A stretch of 64,000 nucleotides of DNA from a virus. The DNA lies in the IMG/VR virus record IMGVR_UViG_3300036790_000270, positions 53,212 through 117,211 of that record; one strand, given 5' to 3'. The notes below the pieces were generated by a model. That model saw only the letters and a list, made by a program, of their open reading frames with translations, was not told the origin of the DNA and made no database searches. Positions 6,995 through 53,419 of this stretch are shown here, one piece after another (position 1 is the stretch's first letter; each line of letters opens with the position of its first letter). A program made the translations under genes and the position numbers.

Positions 6995-9900
6995 GTGACC
7001 GCGACCCCCCCGAAGCCGAGCCTGGTCAAGACCACCGCGCTGTCGATGGCGCAGGCGGTGACCGACCGGCTGACCGCGCTGCTGCCGACGGTACCGAGCG
7101 CCGAGTCGCCGGTAACCGTCTACCAGGCGGGCACCCTGGGCGTCGGCGGCCAGCTGAACGCGCCCACCTCGGTCTTCCCCGCGGGCGCCGGCTACTACGG
7201 GGTGTGGACCGCACCGGACCTGAACGACGGCAACGCCTACACGGTGCAGGTGGAGTGCTTCGGCGGCGGCGGGGGCGGCGGCGGCGGCTCGACCACGACC
7301 GGCGGGGGCGGCGGCGGCGGGGCGGAGTACGCCAGGGAAACCTACTACCCGGTCAAGCCCGGCGCGGACTACGTGTGGACGGTCGGGGTGCCGGGCAGCG
7401 CGGGCACCGCCAACAGCGACAACAACCAGGGCGGGACCGCGGGCGGCAGCGGCGGCGACACGGTCTTCGACATCGCCGGGAGCGGGGTGGCGGGCGGCAT
7501 CACGGCGCACGGCGGCCAGGGCGGTGACGTCGGTAACACCGGGATCGGCGGGACGGCCGGGTCGGGCAGTATCAACACCACCGAGTTCAGCGGCGGCGCC
7601 GGAGGTACCAATCTTCCCGGTTCTGGCGGCGGCGGGTCCGGCGGCCAGGGCGGTACCGACAATCCCGTTAGCCTGAACCAGGGAGGCATGCTGAGCGCGC
7701 CGCCGCTCGCCTGGCTGGTGCTGAACGACGCCTCCTCCAACGGCCAGCTGAACGACAACAGCGGGAACAACAACACCGGCGCGGTCGGCAACCCGGGCGG
7801 CGGCAGCGGCGGCTTCACCTATGCCCAGCCGGGCGCGCCTGCCCAGGTGCCCGCCTACTCCAACGGCGCGAGCCCGCCGAGCTCACCCAACCCGAGCGCC
7901 GCCGGGGACCAGCTGCGCTTCACGCTCAGCTCGCTGACCTCACCGTCGGCGTACTTCTACACGCCCGGCTACAGCGCCAACGGGTCGCAGTTCACCGTCT
8001 CCGGCTGGTTCACCCCCGACCCGACCGGCACCTGGGGCAACACCGCGACCGGCTCACGGGCCGTGCTGGTCGGCAACAACGCGGGCTACGCGACCGCCAG
8101 CCGGGCCGGGGTCACCTTGTACCTGGTGAACAACGGGACGCCTGCCAACCAGAGCTGGCAGCTGGTCTACTACTGCTCCGACTTCTACAACTACCAGACG
8201 GTCAGCACACCGCTGAAGCCGGTGGCGGGCACCGCGGTCTACATCGTCGCGACCTTTAGCTCCGGCACCATGAAGCTGTACGTCAACGGGACGCTCGCCG
8301 GCAGCGCCAGCGCTGGCTTCAGCAGCATTCCCGGCTGGCCGACCACGCCGTACTCGATGCTGGCGGGCGCCAACCCGACCCTGACCGGCGACTGGTTCTT
8401 CGGCTTCATGAGCAACCTCTGGTTCGCTGACGGGGTGCTGAACGCGGCGGGAGTCAGCCAGGCGTACGCTGGCTCGGGCGGCAGCTCCACCGAGGGCGGT
8501 GCGGGCGGCGGCGCATCGGGCGGGCCCGCTGCCAACGGGGGCGCGGGGGCTGCTGGCAGCGGGTCCTCCGGCGGGGCAGGCGGTACCCCGGCAACGCAGC
8601 CCGCAACCTCGATCGGGCTGAACACCCCGGCGTCGGCTGGCATCGCGGGCGCGGCCGGCAGCTCCGGCAACTCCGGCATCACCGGCGCGGCCGGCGCGGG
8701 CGGCGGCGGGGCAGGCTCCAGCTCAGCGCCCCCGGTGATCACCACCGTGCAGGTCCCGTTCGTCACCGCGGCTTCCTACTGCGGGACGGACGCGGGCGGC
8801 GGCGCGGCGGGCGCGGTCTACAACCCGGTCATCCAGGGCACCACGGGGCGGCTGTTCACCGGCGGCCTGGCCAGCGACACCGCCAGCGGCTCAAAGAACT
8901 CGCTGCTGGTCCTGCCGCCCAACCTGGCGGCCAGCCTCGCCAGCGGCAGCTACACGGTACTGCGGGTCACCCTCACCGTCACCAATGCCAACACCCAGGG
9001 CAGTCAGGCGGCGCTGATGCAAGTCGGCTGGAGCGCTGACACGTTCCTGCCGATCACCTATGAGGCCGGCGACATTGCCGGGTCTGCCGGGGTGATGGAG
9101 ATCCCGGCCGGGGCGTACACGGTGACCGCGGACCTCACTGAGTCCCAGCTGGGGCTCTACCTGCAGAACGGCGGCGCGACCGCCCTGGTGCTCGGGCCGG
9201 GCAGTACCCCCACCTTCGCTGCCTACAGCGCGGACACAGCGGCTGACTTTTACACCGCGGTCTACGGGCCGGGTGCCACTGATAACGCGGGAAACTCCCT
9301 GCAGCCCTACCTGACCGTCACCTACGCGCAGGCGACCACCGTCCAGCAGGGCTCCCCGGGCGGGGCCGGCGCCATCCTGCTGACCTACCTGAACCAGGCG
9401 CAGACCCTTGTCGGCACCTGGAACTCCACTGACGGGATCAATGCCAGCGGCGGCCAGCTGACTGAGACGACCGTTGTCCTCGGCTCGACGATCACCGACG
9501 CGGCCCTCGACGGCGCCCGCACGCTGAACCGCGGTGACGCCCGGCGCAGCATGCGGGCAGCTCGGGCACGGGGCCGGGCACTGGGGGCTCGCCCCGGCCG
9601 CCGCCTCGGCGCTGTTCCCGGGGCGCCGGGCACCATCCTCGGTTACACCGCTGGCACCACTACGGTTACCCAGGCGACCGCCGGAAGTTACACGTTCACC
9701 GTGCCCGCGGACGTCACCTCCCTGAACGTGCAGTGCTGGGGCGGCGGCGGCGGTGGCACGGGCGGCAGCAACACGCAGGGGCAGGCAGGCGGCGGCGGCG
9801 GGGGGTACGCCGGGGAACCGAACTACGTGGTCAGCCCGGGGGACGTCATCAGTTACGTCGTCGGGGCGGCCGGCGCGGGCGACCACGTCGGGACTTCCAC

Positions 9901-31371: not shown

Positions 31372-32213
31372 CCAGGCACCAGCGGGGGATCACTGACGAT
31401 GACGAGTACGACGCCTTTATCACGCAGCTGCCGTCTGCGGAGGAACGCGTCATGCTAGCCCTGCGGGAAAGCCGGTACGTGACAGGCTTCTTCCCGCCGT
31501 ACTCCTCAGGTGCTACAGGCATGATCACGGACCTGCTAGCGGAACTGAAAGAAGAGTGGACCTCGAAAACATCATGATGATCGTGGGCATCGCCGCGGTC
31601 TCGGTGGCACTGGTCATGCTCAGCCTGATGCTCGCCGGGATCTGGGACGCCGGCCCGATGGCCGGGTGGTGGCTCAGTTAACGGGTTCTACCATTAGTTA
31701 TGCCTTTGACGCATCATCCGGTGCGGTTGTTCCGGTTGTCGTGCGGCTGCCTGCGCGAGTACCCGATGATGTCAGCGACCGTGCAGCACCTAGTGCTCTG
31801 CATCACCTGCCGCCAGGCAGTCATGACGGTACTCGCCTACCCCGAGCGCCGGTGCGGGGCCCGCGGGCACGCTGACGCCCGGTTCCCGCTGTCCTGCACG
31901 CTACCGCGCGCCGAGTGTAACGGGCGCTGGCACTTCGACGACTGCGCCAGCACCTGGTTCGCTACCGTAACCCCGAAACTAGCAGCCGTACGCGAGGGAA
32001 GGACAGGACGGGCATGAGCACGACCAGGCTTTGCGGTGCCCCCAGCACCACCCGGCCGGGCTGGTCCCTTAACTTCGCGCAGTGCCTGTGGGAGCTGCAC
32101 GACGAGCGCGGCACAACGGTAACCCGGGTGACCGCCGAGCTGCTGGCACTGGGCCCGGCCGTGGAAGAGCTCCTGGAAGCCCGGTTCGGCGTGCCGTTCC
32201 CGAAGGAGGGCCG

Positions 32214-33020
32214 GTGACCCGCAAGCTCCGCATGCTGGCGGCCTGCGAGTGCTCCGGCCTGGTCCGCGACGCGTTCGCCGCAAGAGACTGGGAGGCGTGG
32301 TCGGCGGACATCCTGCCGAGTGAGACCCCGGCCCGGTACACGCGGCTGGACGACGACTGCTACGTCCGCGACCAGAGCATCGACGTGCTGTCCTGCCACT
32401 ACCAGGGCGACGTCCGCGACCTGTTCAGCCCGTGGCACCCGATGAACGAGGAGCGGCGCAAGCGCACGCAGGAGCTGTGGCCGCTGTGGGACCTGGTGAT
32501 CGCGTTCCCGCCGTGCACGCACCTGTCGCTGGCCGGGGCGGTGTGGTGGAAGGTGAAGCGGGAGCCGCAGCTCGACCAGGACAGCGGCCAGTACACGCTG
32601 CCGTCGGTGCAGGACGAGGCCGCCGCGTTCTTCATGGAGATGGTTCGCGCCCCGGCGGCGCACGTCGCGGTGGAGAACCCGCGCGGCGACATGACCCGCC
32701 GTTACCGCCCGCCTGACCAGTACGTGCAGCCGTGGATGTTCGGCGACCCGCTGATCAAGGCAACCGCCCTGTGGCTGGAGAACCTGCCGCCGCTGTACCA
32801 GACGTCCGCGCGGGAGGACTTCCCCGGACTGGGCCGGGTGGCGACCGGCGGGGGCAGCTGGCGGACCGACAAGGCAGCCGGGAAGAAGGCGATGAACACG
32901 CACGAGGACGGCAAGGGCCGTGAGCACCGGCAGCGGGAACGCAACCGCACCCTGCCCGGCCTCGCCCGCGCGATGGCACAGCAGTGGGGCGCCTTCATCG
33001 AGGAGCAGCATGGCAACTAA
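32214..33020 (+). CDS. Phage DNA cytosine methyltransferase-like protein
   Basis: 'MLAACECSGLVRDAF', 'WDLVIAFPPCTHL' (catalytic PC), 'VAVENP', 'QPWMFG'. Confidence 0.8.
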   Translation: MTRKLRMLAACECSGLVRDAFAARDWEAWSADILPSETPARYTRLDDDCYVRDQSIDVLSCHYQGDVRDLFSPWHPMNEERRKRTQELWPLWDLVIAFPPCTHLSLAGAVWWKVKREPQLDQDSGQYTLPSVQDEAAAFFMEMVRAPAAHVAVENPRGDMTRRYRPPDQYVQPWMFGDPLIKATALWLENLPPLYQTSAREDFPGLGRVATGGGSWRTDKAAGKKAMNTHEDGKGREHRQRERNRTLPGLARAMAQQWGAFIEEQHGN

Positions 33021-36791: not shown

Positions 36792-36905
36792 TTAGTCGTG
36801 CCACCCGTTGCCGCAGTTACCGCAGACGTGGCCGCTGTGCGCGCCGGACCCCTGGCAGGTACCACCGCACTTGCTGCACGTCGCCGTGCAACCTGAATTC
36901 GCCAT
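36792..36905 (-). CDS. 37-aa Cys-rich peptide
   Basis: MANSGCTATCSKCGGTCQGSGAHSGHVCGNCGNGWHD; GGGAG RBS. Confidence 0.55.
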   Translation of the reverse strand: MANSGCTATCSKCGGTCQGSGAHSGHVCGNCGNGWHD

Positions 36906-36962
36906 GACCTGCTCCCTCCCGGAAATTGGTGGGCCCCCGCCCATGCCCAGGACGGGGGCCCG

Positions 36963-37035
36963 ATGACATCGGGGGACTTGAACCCCCAACTTCAGTCTCC
37001 TAATGACTGCGCGCTACCAATTGCGCCAGGTGTCT
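36963..37035 (-). tRNA. tRNA with anticodon UAG (nominally Leu), atypical
   Basis: AGACACC-TG-GCGC-AATTGGTA-GCGC-G-CAGTC-ATTAGGA-GACTG-AAGTT-GGGGG-TTCAAGT-CCCCC-GATGTCA-T; two acceptor-stem mismatches, short variable loop, no encoded CCA. Confidence 0.8.
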
Positions 37036-37059
37036 GTTTGGTGCCCTCAGTGTCGTTAA

Positions 37060-37260
37060 GGAACGGCAGGTCTTGCGACGGGTAACGCTCTGCCGGCTGA
37101 GCTAGGGGACCATGCGGAGGTCCCCCGGGGGGTCGAACCCCGGACCTTTACCCTGGTACTACCGTCCTCGCGGGGAGGACCTAACGGCTAACGGCGCGAA
37201 GGACAAGGAGCGAACGGCTAAGCAGTCCGGCTCACGGCTAACGGCTAAGTGCTAGGTCCT
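37060..37260 (-). ncRNA. Structured ncRNA with a circularly permuted tRNA-like domain (core 37080-37153; YrlA/Y-RNA-like) and a TTAGCCG-repeat 5' region; boundaries approximate
   Basis: GGGTAA-AGGTC-CGGGG-TTCGACC-CCCCG-GGGGACC-(TCCGCAT loop)-GGTCCCC-TA-GCTC-AGCCGGCA-GAGC-G-TTACCC: T-arm precedes D-arm and all stems pair perfectly. Confidence 0.85.
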
Positions 37261-37314
37261 TACGTGTAACAGCTTACACGGTCACCTGGTAAATGCAACC
37301 TGTACGGCGGGCAA

Positions 37315-37424
37315 GGCGTCGCCAGTTTGGGTTTCGCCGTCGTCATGGCCTCACGCGCCGCACAAGCCGTTCCGCAGGCAGGGAGTAAGGCGTGTGGTTA
37401 TTGGGTCTCGTCAGGTAGGTAGCC
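37315..37424 (-). repeat. Two solo TIGR-like units (37315-37350, 37389-37424)
   Basis: GGCG-TCGCCAGTT-TGGGTTTCG-CCGTCGTCA-TGGCC; GGCG-TGTGGTTAT-TGGGTCTCG-TCAGGTAGG-TAGCC. Confidence 0.8.
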
Positions 37425-37439
37425 TCACGCCCCGCCTTG

Positions 37440-38204
37440 CTACGGCCGCAGCAGCCAGGAGAAGATCTCCGCGCCCTCGTTCCGCTCGGTCACCGTCGCC
37501 GAGTTGGCTTCCTCCCGGGCCATCTTCACCGCGGTGCGCAGTGCCGACAGCCGGTCGAGCAGCTCCGCCTTCCGCTTCGCCTCCAGGGCGCCGGAGAAGC
37601 TCACCGTCGTGTTGTACTCGACGATCTCGTCGCGGGTCATCACGTCGACCTGCTCCTGGATCGTCGGGGTGCCGTTGCCGCGGTGCCAGTTGAACATGAC
37701 CTTGTCCTTCAGGTCACCTTCCTGCGGGCGCACCGAGCGCCACTGGCCGGGCTCGGTGTTCTCATTCGTCCAGTCCTGCACCCCGTTCAGCACCGGGAGC
37801 GCCTGCACGATGGCGTGCAGCTTGGTGAGCTCGCCTTCCAGGTACACCAGGTGCCGGACCGGGACGTCGTGCATGACGGTGTGCGGCCCGACCACGACGT
37901 CCGCCTTCGCCGCGCCCTGGGCGGTGTCCAGGGTCAGCGCGGTGTCCCACTTGGCAGTCAGCAGCGTCTTCACGTCATCGAGGACCTGAACCGCGGTGTA
38001 GGCGACCTTCTTCTTCACGTCGGGGGTCACCCGGCGGCGCTGGTGGTTCGGGTCGACGGAGTCACTCGCCGCGACCGACTCCTTCTCCATCCCGCTGAAC
38101 AGCTCCGGCTTGGCGACCACCTGGGACACCCGGGCGAGCGCCGTGTCGGTCTCGGTGTTAACCCCGCTGATGATCGCAAGCAGCTGGTGAATCCGGACGG
38201 GCAT
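37440..38204 (-). CDS. Conserved helical/coiled-coil protein of unknown function (family recalled as DUF7873-like; unverified)
   Basis: 'IHQLLAI...LFSG...ADVVV...VPVRHLVYLE...LPVL...FSGAL...VKMAREEAN' resembles a widespread actinobacterial/phage family; AGGAG RBS. Confidence 0.75.
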   Translation of the reverse strand: MPVRIHQLLAIISGVNTETDTALARVSQVVAKPELFSGMEKESVAASDSVDPNHQRRRVTPDVKKKVAYTAVQVLDDVKTLLTAKWDTALTLDTAQGAAKADVVVGPHTVMHDVPVRHLVYLEGELTKLHAIVQALPVLNGVQDWTNENTEPGQWRSVRPQEGDLKDKVMFNWHRGNGTPTIQEQVDVMTRDEIVEYNTTVSFSGALEAKRKAELLDRLSALRTAVKMAREEANSATVTERNEGAEIFSWLLRP

Positions 38205-38243
38205 CCTTGCTCTCCTTTATACGTTTACGTTTACACGAGACCG

Positions 38244-38389
38244 GGCGTTACTACCTTGGGCCTCGTGTCTCGGGTGGCCCGGCGTCGTACGTTTGGGTTA
38301 CGTCTTGCTGGCCGGGGCGTTACTACCTTGGGCCTCGTGTCTGCGTTGGCCCCGGCGTTTGTGCTGTGGGCCTCGTCATGATGCTGGCC
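38244..38389 (-). repeat. TIGR-like array segment, 4 units
   Basis: GGCG-N9-TGGGYYWCG-N9-TGGCC four times (one unit has a 6-nt spacer). Confidence 0.9.
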
Positions 38390-38782
38390 GGGACGCCACG
38401 GCCCCGGGAGGCACTACACCATGCCTCCCGGGGCCTTTCCCTCCTCCGGCGCGCGTACCGGCCGTCCCGGCAGGGTGCCTTCAGCGTGCCGGAGCTTTAT
38501 GCCGCGCCGGGTCAGGCAGCCTGCGCGGGGAACGGGGCGGTGCTGGTGAGCCGCTGGTAAAGGCCGTGGAGGGCCTCCGTCGCGGTGACCTCGGGGGCCT
38601 GCGCCAGGCACGCGCCCTGGCTGTTCGACCAGTTCATGCTTTCCTCCTGATAAGTCGGCCCGCGGTACCCGTCCCGGGATTAGCCCCCGTTATGAGCAGG
38701 GCCGCTGACTGGCCCGGGAACGGGTTCGCTGCGGGGGCTGCACCGCGGTACTGGCGGCGTCCCTCCGCCGTCGTACAGCATC

Positions 38783-40883: not shown

Positions 40884-41771
40884 CTACCGGCCGCGGTGCC
40901 GTCCCCGGTTCTCCTCCCCCACCCGGACCGTCCCGTACACCGGCGCGTCCCCGGCTGCCGTCAGCCACAGGTCCCGCAGGATCTCCTTACCGGTGTGCCG
41001 CAGCCCGATCGCGTGCACGTGCGACTTCTGGTACGGGTCCCCGGCCAGGGCGTAACCGAGCTTCACCTTGCCGCCGGCCGCGTCATCCGGGGTTGCCAGC
41101 GGGTCAGTGTCATCAGGGACGTGCGTCTTGCACTTGACGTACAGCTTCCCGCTGTACCCGCCCACGCAGTCCCGGGTGTGCACCCGCCCGCTGTAGGCTG
41201 CCTTCACGTCGTCGTAGACCTTCCGGTACCCGGTACCCGCCTTCGCGGTGCTCTTCACCTGCGCGACCGACATCAGGTAGACCAGCTTCTTCGCGTCGGG
41301 GCGCCCGTTGGCCATCAGCGCGTCCGCGTCGCCCTTCACGTTCCGGTTCTTCGGCGCGCCCACTGAGCAGTATTGCCACAGCTCGCCCACCCCCCGCGGG
41401 TGCTCCTCGTCGTCGATCAGGTGCCGCCCCGGGCCCTCGCCCTCCCAGTGCCGCGGGGAGGCCGTCCGCGGGTCACCGGTGATGCCCAGCAGCCGGGCCA
41501 GGGTATGCTCGCCGATCCCCGCGCTCTCCTGCTGCCAGCGCTGCACGCTTTCCGGCACCGTCATCCGGTAGCAGGCCGTCAGCTCCGCCTCCAGCCGCTT
41601 CTCCGCCTCCTTGTACAGCTCCAGCACCGGGCCGAGCGCGTCCAGCGTCACCGTCCCCGACCGCTTGGTGTTCTCGAACGCGATCCGGGCGGCCTGCGCG
41701 TCCGCGAACTCCTCCGCCCACATCCGCAGCTCGGTGTACGAGCCCGGGTTGGTGCGCCTGACATTCGTCAT
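40884..41771 (-). CDS. TasA-like Nop-domain (IS110/box C/D-related) RNA-binding protein with no recognisable nuclease domain
   Basis: Coiled-coil 'ADAQAARIAFEN', HhH-like 'AGIGEHTLARLLG', 'LWQYCSVG', 'YRKVYD', C-terminal 'HVHAIGLRHTGKEILRDLW'; no DEDD/RuvC N-terminus; AAGGAG RBS; flanked by dual-spacer arrays. Confidence 0.8.
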   Translation of the reverse strand: MTNVRRTNPGSYTELRMWAEEFADAQAARIAFENTKRSGTVTLDALGPVLELYKEAEKRLEAELTACYRMTVPESVQRWQQESAGIGEHTLARLLGITGDPRTASPRHWEGEGPGRHLIDDEEHPRGVGELWQYCSVGAPKNRNVKGDADALMANGRPDAKKLVYLMSVAQVKSTAKAGTGYRKVYDDVKAAYSGRVHTRDCVGGYSGKLYVKCKTHVPDDTDPLATPDDAAGGKVKLGYALAGDPYQKSHVHAIGLRHTGKEILRDLWLTAAGDAPVYGTVRVGEENRGRHRGR

Positions 41772-44468: not shown

Positions 44469-47400
44469 GTGAGCCGCGCGGCTGAGCCGTTCCGGCTGAC
44501 CACCGGGCGGTGGCACAACCGCTACGACCCGGAGACCGGCCGCACCGCCAAGGCCCCCTGCTACCTGGCCGGCTTCACCTACGACGACTTCGAGTACGGC
44601 GGCGACTACCCGGCCGCCTACCTGCCGGAGGCAGACCCCCCGGAGAGCGTGCAGACCTCCCTGATCTGCGCCCCGTCCACGTTCCTGCTGGTCATCGACG
44701 TCGACCACCCCGAGCAGCTGGGCCCCAGCGCCACCGGGCAGCTGGTCTCCTGGCACGACGCCATGTCCGTGCGCGGCAGCCACTTCCACGTCGGCGTCGA
44801 CATGCGCGGCGCCCGGCCGCAGGACTGGCCGCTGCAGGGCCGCACCCCGTGGGGGGACGTCAAGTCCAACGGGTTCGTCGCCGCCCCCGGCTCCGTGCAC
44901 TACGGCGGCGAGCCCTACGCCCGCACCTCCGCCACCGTCCAGGAACGGCTCGTCGGGTGGACCCCGGAGCTGCTGTCCGCCCTGGCCGCCGACAAGGCCG
45001 CCCTGGTAGCGGCGAAGCGCGCCGAATGGGGCATCGCGGCAGGGGCCAGGCTGGACGGCGGCGGCTACCTGTACGCCAGCGGGTACACGGGCGGCAGCTG
45101 GGAGGCTATCCCCGACGGCGGCCTCAGGCACGACGACGAGCTGAAAGACCTGCTCTGGGACATGCACGTCGAGTACGGCCGGGACGAGGCCGAGTGCCGC
45201 GCCCAGTGGGAGCGCCTCGCCGGGGCGCTGGGCAAGCCGTGGACGGAGCGGGACTTCACCCGGCACTGGCACCGCGTCCCCGCCCGCCGCCTGGACCGCC
45301 TCGAAGACGACGACGCCTACAAGCTGGACCGGGACTTCGGGCTGCGGGTACTGCCCCCGGCCGTCGAGCAGGAGTACAGCCGCCAGCAGGCCGACTGGGA
45401 GCAGCGGGCCAAGGCCGCCGCCGACGAGGGGCGCCAGCCGCCCACCCCGGTCCCCGCCGACGGCCCCTTCGAGGACCCGGGTGACCCCGGCGCCGACCTG
45501 TTCGACTGGAACCTCGGCGTCGGCGCCTACCAGCGGCCGTTCGACGCCGGGCCGCCCAGCGACTCCGACAACGCCCGCGCCGTGCTGTCGCGGATCGGCG
45601 GCGTGTGCGCCTACCTGACCGACCGCGGCATCTGGCTCAAGCGGGTCGGCGCCCGCTGGGACGACCAGGAACTGGGCGCCAACCTGCGCCCGGTGCTGGC
45701 CGCCGTCGAGGAAGTCATGCCCGCTGGCTGCGCCGACCCGGTCAAGGTGCTGGACCTGGACGCCGACGACGACGCCCCGCAGGTGGCGGCACTTAAAGCG
45801 CAGGCCAAGAACCTGGAGCGGTTCAAGTCAACCGCGTCGCGGCAGTCCGTCGCCACCGCCTGCGCGGACACCGCCATCCGGTACTCCGGCCGCGGCCTGG
45901 CGACCCGCGCCGACGCCCTTGACACCGAGCCTGAGGTGCTGTGGGCGGGCGGGGTGCCCTGGGACCTGCGCGCCTCCCGCAACGGGCCCGTACGGGCCGC
46001 CCTGAGCCGTTACCAGCCGCACCTGATGAGCGCCGCCGTGGTCCCCGACCTGTCCGGGCCGCACGACCGCTGGGACGCGCTGACCGCGGCCATCTGGCCG
46101 GACGAACGGGGCCGCGAATGGGCGCTGCAGGTGCTCGCCGTCGCCTTCACCGGCTACTCCGACGCGGTCATGCCGATCCTGATGGGCGACCCCGGCCGGG
46201 GCAAGACGCACCTGGTCAAGCGGCTGATCGACGTCCTGGGGGGCAACACCTCCTGGAGCTACGGCGGCGTGATGAACGCCGACCTGCTGCGGTCGGACGC
46301 CAAGCTGCACGGCACCTTCACCCTCGACCTGAAAGGCAAGCGGCTCGCGTTCATCGACGAGGCCCCCGGGCACGGGCTCGCCGCCCAGCGCAGGCTCAAG
46401 TCCCTCACCGGCGGCGGCGCGCTGCAGGGCAACCGGATGCGGGAGAACCCGGTCAGCTTCGCGCCCACCCACACGCTGGTGATGACCGCCAACCACGAGG
46501 ACCCGCCGCCGCTCGACGAGCCCGCACTGCAGCGCCGGGCCCGGCTGATCTTCTTCGAGGGGGACCTGGCCGCCGTCGACGCCGCCAGCCGCGACATCGA
46601 CGGCGGGGAGCCCCAGCGGGCCGCCTGGCGCAAGGAGATGCCCTGGGTGCTGGCCCGGATGATGCAGCTGGCAGCCGCCTGGCTGGATAACCGCGGCGTC
46701 GCCGACGCCGACCGCGCCCCGCTCGACTGGCAGAACAAGAAAGACACCGAGATCAGCACCCAGGACCCGGTCCTCGCCTGGCTGGACTCCGGTGAGGTCG
46801 CGCCCGACCCGGCGGGCACCAGGTCCTCGGTGCTCCGGGAGAACTTCGTGTCCTGGTGCAAGAACCAGGGACTGGCCGCGCCGACCGTGACCAAGTGGGG
46901 CCGGCGGCTTACTGAACTCGGCTTCCCGGTCACCGGGCGTGACGCCGGCGGCAGGTACCGGCCCCTCAAGCCAGTTCTGCCTGGTGCGGCGGACTTCATG
47001 CATGGTTCAGGCGGCCGGTCAACTATGCAGCAAACCGTACATCCGGAGAATCCCCAGGTCAGCGGTAGCTCTATGTATAGTTTGTATAGTTTGTATAGTA
47101 AAAACAACACTACACAGGAAGAGAGTATAAATAACCCCCTAGCACCCCCTACCAGCACACATATAAATAAGGGGGAAAGTGGGAAAACTGAGCAACCGTG
47201 CACAGCCCCCGAAAATGTATGGTCTGACCTGGGGATTCATAGTTCTGTGCACGGTTCTGAGACCATGCAAGACAGTGCACAACCCGGCACAACCCCCCTG
47301 GCGAGCAAACCCCATACGCCGTACAGGAAATCGGGCGCGGAACCGGCCGCCACTCATAAGAGCCGTCCGGCCGAAACGGGCAAAAACGACAAAATAGTCG

Positions 47401-48194
47401 AAAAACCCAAAACCCCCCCAAGTGGGAAAAACCCGAAAAACCGGCTGAGCGAGGAAGAGAAGCTGGCCCGAGCCCAGGCGCGCAAGGAGAGGCTGGCCGC
47501 CGAACGGCTCGCGGCCCGGCAGGCGAGAATCACCGAACTGGGCGGCCCGCTGGTGCCGCTGCCCGCGGTGGTGCTCCGCGACCAGCGCGTCCTGCCGGTG
47601 ACGCCGGAGGCAGCCGCCCGGTGGCTGGAAGGCTGCCTGGCCGAGCTGAGCGTCGACGTCGAGCACACCGGCTACCCGCGGACGCACAAGGACTACCGGC
47701 TGCGCCTGGTGCAGCTCGGCAACGAGGGCTCCGCCGTGGTGCTCGACCCGGCCGACCCGGCGCAGGCGGCAGTGATCCGGGATGCCCTGGCGAGCGCGAC
47801 GGTGCTGCACGCCCACTCGGCGCTGGCCGACCTGATCCCCCTGGAAGCCACCGGGCTCGGCGACGCCAGCATGTGGGACAAGATGATCGACACGGTGAAC
47901 ATCGCCAAGCTGAGCGACCCGGCCCTGTGCGACAGCGACGAGGCCGGCCTGAAGGCCCTGGCGAGGAACCTGCTGGGTCCTGACTACGCCCTGAGCTGGC
48001 GGCTGGACGAGCTGCGCAAGGAGATCTTCGCGGCCGGCGGCTGGATCGGGGACTGCGAGGTGACCACCCCGGCCGAGCGCAGCGGCTGGGCGAGCATTCC
48101 CTTGTGCGAGAGCTTCGTGCGTTACAGTGCGAGTGATGTACTCGACTGCGCCGCTGTGGCGCGCGTTCTAGGCGGAGGACCCGTTGGCGGGTAA
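44469..48194 (+). CDS. Fusion: prim-pol primase + D5-like SF3 helicase + low-complexity linker + PolA-type 3'-5' exonuclease
   Basis: 'LLVIDVD', 'HFHV', 'DVKSNGFVAAPGS'; Walker A 'GDPGRGKT', 'AFIDE'; ExoI 'SVDVEHTG', ExoII 'HAHSALADL', ExoIII 'YSASDV'. Confidence 0.85.
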   Translation: MSRAAEPFRLTTGRWHNRYDPETGRTAKAPCYLAGFTYDDFEYGGDYPAAYLPEADPPESVQTSLICAPSTFLLVIDVDHPEQLGPSATGQLVSWHDAMSVRGSHFHVGVDMRGARPQDWPLQGRTPWGDVKSNGFVAAPGSVHYGGEPYARTSATVQERLVGWTPELLSALAADKAALVAAKRAEWGIAAGARLDGGGYLYASGYTGGSWEAIPDGGLRHDDELKDLLWDMHVEYGRDEAECRAQWERLAGALGKPWTERDFTRHWHRVPARRLDRLEDDDAYKLDRDFGLRVLPPAVEQEYSRQQADWEQRAKAAADEGRQPPTPVPADGPFEDPGDPGADLFDWNLGVGAYQRPFDAGPPSDSDNARAVLSRIGGVCAYLTDRGIWLKRVGARWDDQELGANLRPVLAAVEEVMPAGCADPVKVLDLDADDDAPQVAALKAQAKNLERFKSTASRQSVATACADTAIRYSGRGLATRADALDTEPEVLWAGGVPWDLRASRNGPVRAALSRYQPHLMSAAVVPDLSGPHDRWDALTAAIWPDERGREWALQVLAVAFTGYSDAVMPILMGDPGRGKTHLVKRLIDVLGGNTSWSYGGVMNADLLRSDAKLHGTFTLDLKGKRLAFIDEAPGHGLAAQRRLKSLTGGGALQGNRMRENPVSFAPTHTLVMTANHEDPPPLDEPALQRRARLIFFEGDLAAVDAASRDIDGGEPQRAAWRKEMPWVLARMMQLAAAWLDNRGVADADRAPLDWQNKKDTEISTQDPVLAWLDSGEVAPDPAGTRSSVLRENFVSWCKNQGLAAPTVTKWGRRLTELGFPVTGRDAGGRYRPLKPVLPGAADFMHGSGGRSTMQQTVHPENPQVSGSSMYSLYSLYSKNNTTQEESINNPLAPPTSTHINKGESGKTEQPCTAPENVWSDLGIHSSVHGSETMQDSAQPGTTPLASKPHTPYRKSGAEPAATHKSRPAETGKNDKIVEKPKTPPSGKNPKNRLSEEEKLARAQARKERLAAERLAARQARITELGGPLVPLPAVVLRDQRVLPVTPEAAARWLEGCLAELSVDVEHTGYPRTHKDYRLRLVQLGNEGSAVVLDPADPAQAAVIRDALASATVLHAHSALADLIPLEATGLGDASMWDKMIDTVNIAKLSDPALCDSDEAGLKALARNLLGPDYALSWRLDELRKEIFAAGGWIGDCEVTTPAERSGWASIPLCESFVRYSASDVLDCAAVARVLGGGPVGG
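47020..47440. other. Putative replication origin (AT-rich, iteron-like repeats) inside the primase ORF
   Basis: Sharp GC drop; TGTATAGTT x3 at 47074-47100; roughly ten degenerate ACYRTRCA octamers on both strands. Confidence 0.6.
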
Positions 48195-53069: not shown

Positions 53070-53419
53070 ACAGCAGCGACGACATCATCTACCAGCAGGC
53101 AACCGGGCAGCTCCCGGGCCAGGGTGAAACCCTGTTCAATCCCGATGACGAGCTCACCGACCAGGACGTGCTGTCTTTCATCGGCCAGCACGCCGGCACC
53201 GTCGCGATGACCACGTTCCCGCTGCGGATGGAACCCGGCGGCGGGCACCCCGGGGACAAGGTGTTCTACGCCCCGGTGCCTACCCGCGACCCGGAGCTGT
53301 TCATCGCCATCGGGTTCCGGTTCGGTTACCCGTCCGCCGACCAGATGGAAAACTACAAGGCCCGCTGGGCGTCCCTCAACGGCCCGATGACCCGCCAGGA
53401 ACTCGGCGCGCTGCGGTGA
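53066..53419 (+). CDS. Hypothetical protein
   Basis: 117-aa ORF with GTGA overlap. Confidence 0.55.
   Translation: MNSSDDIIYQQATGQLPGQGETLFNPDDELTDQDVLSFIGQHAGTVAMTTFPLRMEPGGGHPGDKVFYAPVPTRDPELFIAIGFRFGYPSADQMENYKARWASLNGPMTRQELGALR

Follow-up and report, generated by a model that had tools for sequence, protein, structure and literature searches.

Until now the definition of bacterial Y RNAs has depended on Ro60, the sole protein known to partner such RNAs. The published survey of them covered only TROVE-encoding genomes and recognised YrlA where it shared a strand with a Ro60/TROVE gene and lay within about 4 kb of it (Chen et al. 2014, PMC4201824). Phages carrying both Ro60 and YrlA are known, and the motif GNCGAAN0-1G near the YrlA 5′ end is a proposed Ro60 contact (PMC4201824). 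In Mycobacterium smegmatis, the same study reports, YrlA and YrlB derive from one precursor, and YrlA has a 7-bp acceptor stem, is cleaved by RNase P and gains CA in vivo, completing CCA (Chen et al., PMC4201824). Here we analyse a DNA window of 64,000 nucleotides (nt), positions 53,212 to 117,211 of the virus record IMGVR_UViG_3300036790_000270 (117,211 bp, estimated 82% complete), in which a circularly permuted tRNA-like element lies on the minus strand just downstream of a gene for a 254-residue protein of the Pfam family DUF7873. In relatives, an RNA with such an element is linked to the DUF7873 gene, keeps its structure and is independent of Ro60, and we argue that gene and RNA may together make up a ribonucleoprotein of their own.

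A preliminary description of the window, made from the letters alone, had proposed collecting homologues of the protein gene and looking for covarying structure downstream of them, and this is where the RNA was found. The first scan of viral contigs gave seven homologous loci, four of which have a sub-threshold match to the Rfam YrlA model just 3′ of the gene (31.9–38.5 bits). We then applied a strict detector, which requires a 5-bp T stem with a TTCRA loop, directly followed by a 7-nt strand, a loop of 3–90 nt, a 7/7 complement, 2 nt and a D arm, to two sets of loci: the best 80 of 163 uncultured viral relatives from a profile scan, and the best 80 of at least 571 confirmed bacterial relatives, nearly all of them Actinomycetota. 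At least one permuted element lies within 1 kb downstream of the gene, on the same strand, in 75 of the 80 viral loci, and at least two in 45, with 120 matches in 78,080 nt of downstream sequence compared to 8 in 799,768 nt elsewhere. The bacterial loci have at least one element within 1 kb downstream on the same strand in every case (80/80) and at least two in 58, and there are two matches elsewhere in 1.9 Mb. A covariance model of the element (R1, see below) raises the viral figure to 78 of 80. The viral loci range from 30 to 70% in G+C, with protein identity to the window protein as low as 27%, and when all neighbouring open reading frames in both sets were clustered against each other, no other gene was found to be conserved beside DUF7873. 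Five bacterial loci have ordinary chromosomal, metabolic genes on their flanks and no defence islands. The linkage of gene and RNA is very strong.

In the window itself the permuted core occupies positions 37153–37080 of the minus strand, as judged from the sequence, the YrlA model match and the strict detector, and all of the parts that the preliminary description had named were recovered there. It begins with the 3′ strand of an anticodon-like stem (37153–37148) and a variable region of 5 nt (37147–37143), followed by a T arm with the loop TTCGACC (37142–37126) and a 7-bp acceptor stem of perfect complementarity (37125–37119 with 37111–37105) that is capped by the 7-nt loop TCCGCAT (37118–37112). 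After the dinucleotide TA (37104–37103) come a D arm with a AGCCGGCA loop (37102–37087) and the partner strand of the anticodon-like stem (37085–37080). Over both strands of the window the detector reports exactly one complete site, which is this element, and one extra 6/7 site without a D arm. The suggestion of a YrlA-like architecture is borne out by an alignment of the Rfam YrlA model over its full length (model positions 1–114, window positions 37057–37168), at 35.1 bits and E 6.8e-6 in a 701-nt search, though the element does not reach the YrlA gathering score of 69 bits, and at gathering thresholds an adjacent tRNA is the sole report. There is also a weak match to the Rfam mascRNA-menRNA model (24 bits, E 0.02), while for transfer-messenger RNA (tmRNA) neither ARAGORN nor the Rfam model makes a call in the window. 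The element has no anticodon loop, and its ends run on into an outer stem that covaries in relatives; the outward pairing noted earlier holds, and extends to 9 bp (37167–37159 with 37069–37061, from a flexible helix search). The GTC-GCAA-GAC hairpin claimed at its inner end is present at 37079–37070, but relatives have a conserved unpaired loop in that place and no GNRA hairpin.

The anatomy of the RNA in relatives was obtained from 104 distinct viral elements aligned on anchors, together with a reading of whole intergenic regions. There are two types of head, the first nearer the gene and the second present in nearly every locus. The second sits on a stalk with an ATCGACC-type motif on the 5′ side and, in most elements of this type (type B), a CTTAAACG motif 25–28 nt after the D arm; the columns of the latter motif are nearly invariant in the alignment. 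The first has short direct repeats on its flanks with a period of 6 nt (the autocorrelation at lag 6 is 0.469 compared to 0.18–0.27 at other lags, in 91 elements), and is closed by a helix, P1, between the leader and a TTATCGCTCC-like motif. Among 88 relatives P1 reaches 6 bp or more in 55, which lends it modest support when compared to shuffled partners (mean 41.7, maximum 53). Some bacterial loci have a plain hairpin in place of the first head, and across relatives the RNA ends with a GC-rich hairpin. In three loci (L082, L048 and L044) inspection by eye showed an extra small T-arm hairpin, or mini tRNA-like element, between the DUF7873 stop codon and the repeat tract. Two further candidates were rejected: pairing of the repeat tracts that flank the first head into a long rod, for which the duplex energy is −13.87 kcal/mol compared to −13.53 with shuffled partners, and a tmRNA-like tag encoded by the repeats or by the region after the head, where reading frames vary among loci (by eye).

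The structure of the second head is supported by covariation, a test that the preliminary description had asked for: all of the helices covary. In a MAFFT alignment of 42 such heads with the structure supplied, 88.4% of cells are paired, compared to 63.1% after shuffling of partners (a value matched in 0 of 500 shuffles) and at most 49.6% when partners are slid. The T, acceptor and D helices had served to select the elements, so that their pairing is partly there by construction. The outer stem, which played no role in detection, is 87.9% paired in the same alignment with changes on both sides at 8/8 pairs, and RNAalifold recovered it independently from a separate alignment. The anticodon-like stem could not be given a single fixed register, a candidate that was dropped as the signal is spread over several, which is why a flexible helix search was used. 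The covariance model R1, built from the 42-element alignment, scores DUF7873-linked heads at 55–111 bits over its full length, and gives the window 73.9 bits at 37050–37177, a sequence that formed part of the seed. When 135 distinct rows are aligned by fitting to the model, 91.6% of cells are paired compared to 54.5% when shuffled, in an alignment that leans towards the model.

If the RNA were a conventional YrlA one would look for Ro60 nearby. No TROVE match was found in the 117-kb record, so that the earlier remark that no Ro60 is visible holds for its whole length, nor in five related viral records, one of which is 100% and another 90% complete; the window RNA has no adjacent TROVE gene of the kind by which the survey recognised YrlA. 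A larger sample is provided by 101 genomes from the genus of Streptomyces sp. BBFR2, where DUF7873 and TROVE are each found in 55 genomes, 33 having both, 22 DUF7873 alone, 22 TROVE alone and 24 neither, a co-occurrence that is not significant (odds ratio 1.64, p = 0.24). Among five named actinomycete genomes with the cassette (four complete), three are without TROVE and two have it more than 0.6 Mb away. Both of those TROVE genes have their own adjacent YrlA-like match, at 41.9 and 34.7 bits, and R1 scores TROVE-adjacent YrlA-like matches at 36–42 bits, in alignments that span the core or most of the model without its ends. Since these TROVE-adjacent matches are also sub-threshold, a low YrlA score does not exclude membership of that family. 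In bacteria that have both genes, DUF7873 and TROVE are more than 60 kb apart. On the same contig the spacing is typically 65–140 kb (e.g., G316, G366, G343, G346, G373, G327, G398, G405, G197 and G315), a distance that points to a conserved region of the chromosome and not to an operon. The proposed Ro60 contact, GNCGAAN0-1G, does not occur in the 120 nt that precede the T arm of the window element. Over the family, the 60 nt before the T arm contain it in 40 of 246 elements, compared to 14 of 246 in the downstream control, at two offsets and in two bacterial clades. Ro60 is probably not the partner of this RNA, and the cassette is independent of it.

The protein gene (37440–38204, minus strand) matches Pfam PF25283 at 180.3 bits (E 6.8e-53) over profile positions 3–242 of 244, where the curated cut-off is 27 bits, and has a G+C content at third codon positions of 0.95. 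An AlphaFold2 model made with 35 homologues is confidently predicted (pLDDT 90.8, pTM 0.78) and has four long helices with a beta sheet that includes a long hairpin, so the coiled-coil protein of the preliminary description gives way to a predicted four-helix bundle with a sheet. Searches for relatives outside the family returned little: the window protein matches no PHROG, PADLOC or NCBIfam family, with nothing at E ≤ 0.1 in PADLOC-DB 2.0 (the 2023 library), and the sole PADLOC match is that of one homologue to BrxE at E 0.022. Just two designed proteins were found by a sequence-profile search of the PDB (E 0.02–0.05), and fold comparisons gave no convincing relative (Foldseek against the PDB, best E 0.028; VIA, best Z 8.1, to generic helical bundles; BFVD, best E 0.014), while the ESM Atlas returned only further DUF7873 clusters. 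A relationship to Cas7 appeared repeatedly as very weak rows of fold searches (TM about 0.1) and was rejected as evidence. We found no paper that names DUF7873 and none that describes this RNA, in a search with most subscription journals outside its reach.

The tRNA-like element had been presented as a short stand-alone RNA, but is better seen as one domain of an RNA of ~340 nt and not as a Y RNA of ~110 nt. The proposed non-coding RNA covers 36923–37264 on the minus strand, its predicted ends being set from the sequence and from the modules conserved in relatives. Just 5′ of it is a promoter-like TTGCAT-16 nt-TAAGCT (37298–37271), read from the sequence; a strict scan for the sigma-70 consensus found no promoter at the 5′ side of the RNA. 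The leader domain (37199–37261) consists of a closing helix equivalent to P1 (37261–37256 with 37204–37199) around 7-nt repeats and a TTCGCTCC motif (37214–37207). Exact heptamers are at 37248–37242, 37241–37235 and 37221–37215, with a variant at 37234–37228, and a further exact copy (37191–37185) lies in the linker that follows (37164–37198), where there is also a small hairpin (37180–37175 with 37169–37164); of seven exact copies in the window, four are inside 37185–37248. In the alignments the linker takes the place of the relatives' conserved ATCGACC-type motif. Next is the stalk with its tRNA-like head (“head B”, 37061–37167), in which the 9-bp outer stem encloses the permuted core, and whose 3′ side (37054–37079) is made up of the 10-nt loop or hairpin, the outer-stem strand and CTTAACG (37060–37054), the counterpart, by its offset of 27 after the D arm, of the CTTAAACG motif in relatives. 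The window element is thus of the second head type, with a leader that keeps the closing helix, the TTCGCTCC motif and four 7-nt repeats.

Between the stalk and the end of the RNA unit is a cloverleaf of conventional order (36962–37035, minus strand), which ARAGORN calls as a tRNA-Leu with anticodon tag and the Rfam tRNA model scores at 48.3 bits. It has two non-standard acceptor pairs, and its orthologues in three relatives keep the body, with D and T arms, while their anticodons are ctg, tcg and atg and every one of the acceptor stems contains a mismatch. The cloverleaf is possibly not a tRNA used in decoding but a third tRNA-like head. The last feature (36923–36961) is a GC-rich hairpin (stem 36961–36953 with 36939–36931) followed by a run of T, ACCAATTT, which is likely to be the terminator and 3′ end. 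The hairpin is kept in three close relatives, and the RNAs of other loci end in equivalent hairpins.

We sought DUF7873 in cultured phages and in sequenced bacteria. There are 61 cultured phage records with the gene, from phages of Vibrio (29), Gordonia (12), Rhizobium (12), Arthrobacter (3), Pseudanabaena (2), Ralstonia (2) and Rhodococcus (1), and in every row shown the annotation is “hypothetical protein”. For instance, in the Gordonia phage GodonK the gene is within an array of at least 30 annotated tRNAs, and the 500-nt gap after it has two heads. There are likewise two heads in the Ralstonia phage phiRSL1, and a single head, followed by a tRNA, in the Vibrio phage D517. None of the 350–500-nt gaps that hold the RNA in these three phages has an RNA annotation. 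In a scan of 60 of the 80 viral loci for tRNA genes, one or more canonical tRNAs were called no further than 2.5 kb away in 36, and a tmRNA in one; in some loci the tRNA calls directly after the head may belong to the RNA. Phage tmRNA genes were also seen 1–3 kb upstream of the cassette in two viral loci (L032, 985–1382; L006, 141–416). In bacteria the gene is found in 7 of 301 genomes sampled evenly across the phylum, all of 7–10 Mb, and in about half (55/101) of the genomes from the genus of Streptomyces sp. BBFR2, where more than one copy is very rare. Phage cassettes ride within tRNA gene arrays, and those of actinomycetes are a single-copy, chromosomal accessory gene pair.

G+C is about 62–73% over record and window. 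Megablast of 36900–38400 against cultured phages gave zero matches, as did a search of viral contigs for an exact 21-nt pattern taken from the head. Just 5′ of the DUF7873 gene (38243–38390, in plus-strand coordinates) a 38-nt unit is present in three direct copies, spaced by 72 and 38 nt and with 92% and 63% identity to the reference copy, which may be a repeated promoter or operator. Further away are a 1241-residue protein of the primase-polymerase/helicase type with a 3′-5′ exonuclease domain (44469–48194, plus strand), a protein matching a PHROG annotated as transposase (40884–41771, minus strand) and a DNA methyltransferase (32082–33020, plus strand).

Features of the heads are consistent with processing of the kind described for M. 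smegmatis YrlA. A 7-bp acceptor stem is found in every detected head, as the detector requires one. The first loop base after the 3′ strand is T in 113, A in 94 and G in 38 of 246 elements, and after this discriminator-like base the loop continues with CCA in 80 and with CTN in 121; the two closest relatives of the window element have the capping loop TCCAGCAT, with TCCA. From the N-CCA loop starts, the 7-bp stem and the YrlA precedent we infer cleavage by RNase P and completion of CCA. As for expression, a Streptomyces viridosporus locus (L116) was compared with an isolate RNA-seq run (X12) of a related organism, in which two 60-nt contigs over the second head (7003–7091) have word depths of 18,900 and 12,767. 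The contigs on the flanks, one of them over the gene, have 335 and 622. This makes the head 20–55 times deeper, a weak hint of expression of the head region, in assembled contigs that come from a relative and give neither RNA ends nor true levels. Low-depth contigs over gene and RNA in three soil or root RNA runs (X1, X5 and X7) may be DNA and were not used as evidence.

A possible course of events can be sketched. It would start with a cut by host RNase P between 37112 and 37111, at the 5′ side of the acceptor stem. The upstream piece would then be trimmed, and the CCA-adding enzyme would finish its N-CCA end, as happens to YrlA in M. smegmatis. The product would be a nicked but very stable tRNA mimic, held together by the stalk. 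DUF7873 would bind the conserved stalk loops, the periodic tract or both, and the head would dock on a tRNA-binding factor of the host, so that the RNA tethers DUF7873 to the tRNA or translation machinery much as a Y RNA tethers Ro60 to PNPase. Both the binding of RNA by the protein and the engagement of tRNA-handling host factors by the heads are proposed because of the analogy with Ro60–Y RNA and SmpB–tmRNA.

We put at about 0.55 the probability that DUF7873 and the ~340-nt RNA are a self-contained two-part cassette for a dedicated ribonucleoprotein related to Y RNAs, in which binding, processing and function are inferred; the relationship to Y RNAs is pointed to by the shared design and the weak model match. 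Several observations weigh against this reading. The fold energy of the window element is unremarkable (z = −1.24, with 24 of 200 shuffles folding equally well), and as folding energy alone is not distinctive, the case for an RNA rests on the comparative evidence. The window loop begins TCC-G and not TCCA, the repeats have a 7-nt period compared to 6 nt in relatives, and the first head, present in most relatives, is missing from the window's clade. One distinct viral locus (L015 and L016, which are identical in this region) has DUF7873 without the RNA, the gene being followed by a terminator and then another gene, and in another (L061), where the protein match is partial, the RNA is on the opposite strand about 1.2 kb away. 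Adjacency of gene and RNA could by itself reflect co-expression, and DUF7873 has, as far as the predicted model goes, no recognisable fold relative or RNA-binding motif. TROVE is also present in 33 of the 55 DUF7873-positive genomes, and a Ro60 supplied by the host of this phage could still be involved. Lastly, the RNA-seq contigs are those of a relative, as said above.

The nearest alternative would be an ordinary YrlA-type Y RNA that uses a borrowed host Ro60, with DUF7873 as merely a frequent neighbour. The YrlA model is indeed matched at full length, in the window and in the four relatives of the first scan, the TROVE-adjacent actinobacterial matches are likewise below threshold, phages with Ro60 and YrlA are known (PMC4201824), and more than half of the DUF7873-positive genomes have a TROVE match. 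However, TROVE is missing from the other 22 of 55, and from three of the five named actinomycete genomes, and where present it has its own YrlA-like RNA nearby; the Ro60 contact is absent in the window and seen in 40 of 246 elements only, and the flank motifs (ATCGACC-type and CTTAAACG) are foreign to YrlA, while linkage to DUF7873 is near-universal. We consider this explanation unlikely. Slightly less probable still is a role purely in cis, with the RNA as a 3′ element of the tRNA array or of the DUF7873 mRNA, a processing and stability module cut by RNase P like mascRNA at the MALAT1 3′ end, with no partner role. It would account for a position that is always downstream on the strand of the gene, for an acceptor stem of RNase P type, for the weak mascRNA-menRNA match and for cassettes inside tRNA arrays that are processed by the same enzymes. 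Yet a covarying structure of ~340–450 nt, whose motifs are kept from 30% to 70% G+C, exceeds what a processing signal needs, GC-rich hairpins stand between stop codon and RNA in bacterial loci (by eye), and the greater depth of the head than of its flanks in one RNA run is a weak hint in the same direction.

About as improbable as a cis element is a conflict module, whether a type III-like toxin–antitoxin system with a repeat RNA that neutralises the protein, or an exchanged defence or anti-defence device. The spread is certainly patchy (55 of 101 genomes in one genus compared to 7 of 301 across the phylum), the gene is single-copy and has no conserved neighbours, chromosomes share it with phages that infect seven or more host genera, and the RNA has short periodic repeats. 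The repeat units are, however, of 6–7 nt and not ~36 nt, no nuclease fold was recognised, and the gene order is opposite to that known for ToxIN-type loci; no PADLOC family matches apart from the lone BrxE hit of one homologue (E 0.022), and the five bacterial loci are flanked by metabolic genes and not defence islands. The preliminary description had offered a decoy for host anticodon nucleases as an example of function, but the lack of an anticodon loop in the fold makes this unlikely. The cassette is, moreover, found among ordinary chromosomal genes of actinomycetes, and therefore is not purely a phage counter-defence. Least probable is that a functional tRNA is made from a permuted gene by way of a circular intermediate, which is the route taken in red algae, or that the RNA is a tmRNA in two pieces. 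The swapped halves, an acceptor stem of 7 bp and, in many relatives, a loop that starts with N-CCA would suit either kind of gene, and some phages have tmRNA genes near the cassette. Against it, there is no anticodon loop, the anticodon-like stem continuing as a covarying outer stem, ARAGORN reports no tmRNA, and several loci have no conserved frame or stop (by eye). Nor are bacteria known to have the splicing endonuclease pathway that matures permuted tRNAs.

Returning to the DUF7873 cassette, the tRNA-mimic design has a second, Ro60-independent life, tied near-universally to a protein family of unrecognised fold. If the pair is a ribonucleoprotein, it would give DUF7873 a testable function and add a new class of large structured RNA with tRNA-like heads, and there are tractable systems (Gordonia terrae with GodonK; Streptomyces) in which to ask why phages put tRNA mimics in tRNA arrays. 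More tentatively, and with the odds somewhat against it, one can picture a third class of tRNA-mimic ribonucleoprotein beside SmpB–tmRNA and Ro60–Y RNA, in which several protein copies would read both the single-stranded tract of 6-nt period and the stalk loops, and one to three heads, processed by RNase P and CCA-ended, would be presented. If this were true, the heads would face the ribosome or tRNA enzymes, and through them phage and cell could sense or adjust translation or the metabolism of tRNA. Such a system would be widespread among Streptomyces-like actinomycetes and the tailed phages of several phyla of bacteria.

Of the systems with which the cassette can be compared, YrlA (RF02553) is the closest, having the same permuted T arm, loop-capped acceptor-like stem and D arm on a stem formed by the two ends of the RNA, and the YrlA/YrlB precursor of M. 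smegmatis resembles it in having several tRNA-like modules per transcript (PMC4201824). It is unlike YrlA in being linked to DUF7873 instead of TROVE and in occurring in genomes without a TROVE match, in that GNCGAAN0-1G is not conserved and the score is below the Rfam threshold, and in being embedded in an RNA of 340–450 nt with a periodic-repeat leader, usually two heads, and conserved stalk motifs (ATCGACC-type and CTTAAACG) that are not YrlA features. With SmpB and tmRNA it shares a small dedicated protein gene directly adjoining the gene of a tRNA-mimic RNA, and its permuted order would, once processed, yield a two-piece, CCA-ended tRNA-like domain like that of two-piece tmRNAs; unlike tmRNA it has a full D arm, no tag reading frame and no ARAGORN tmRNA call, and unlike SmpB the protein has no detected similarity to any solved protein. 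A similar case is mascRNA/MALAT1, where a tRNA-like fold that RNase P can cleave lies inside a longer transcript, in keeping with the weak 24-bit Rfam match; those modules are eukaryotic, single, of conventional order and without a dedicated protein gene, whereas the DUF7873-linked RNA is permuted and has conserved flanks. Finally, in the permuted tRNA genes of Cyanidioschyzon merolae and its relatives the 3′ half also comes before the 5′ half and an intervening sequence separates the acceptor strands, but these mature to real tRNAs with anticodon loops, whereas here a long covarying stalk replaces the anticodon arm.

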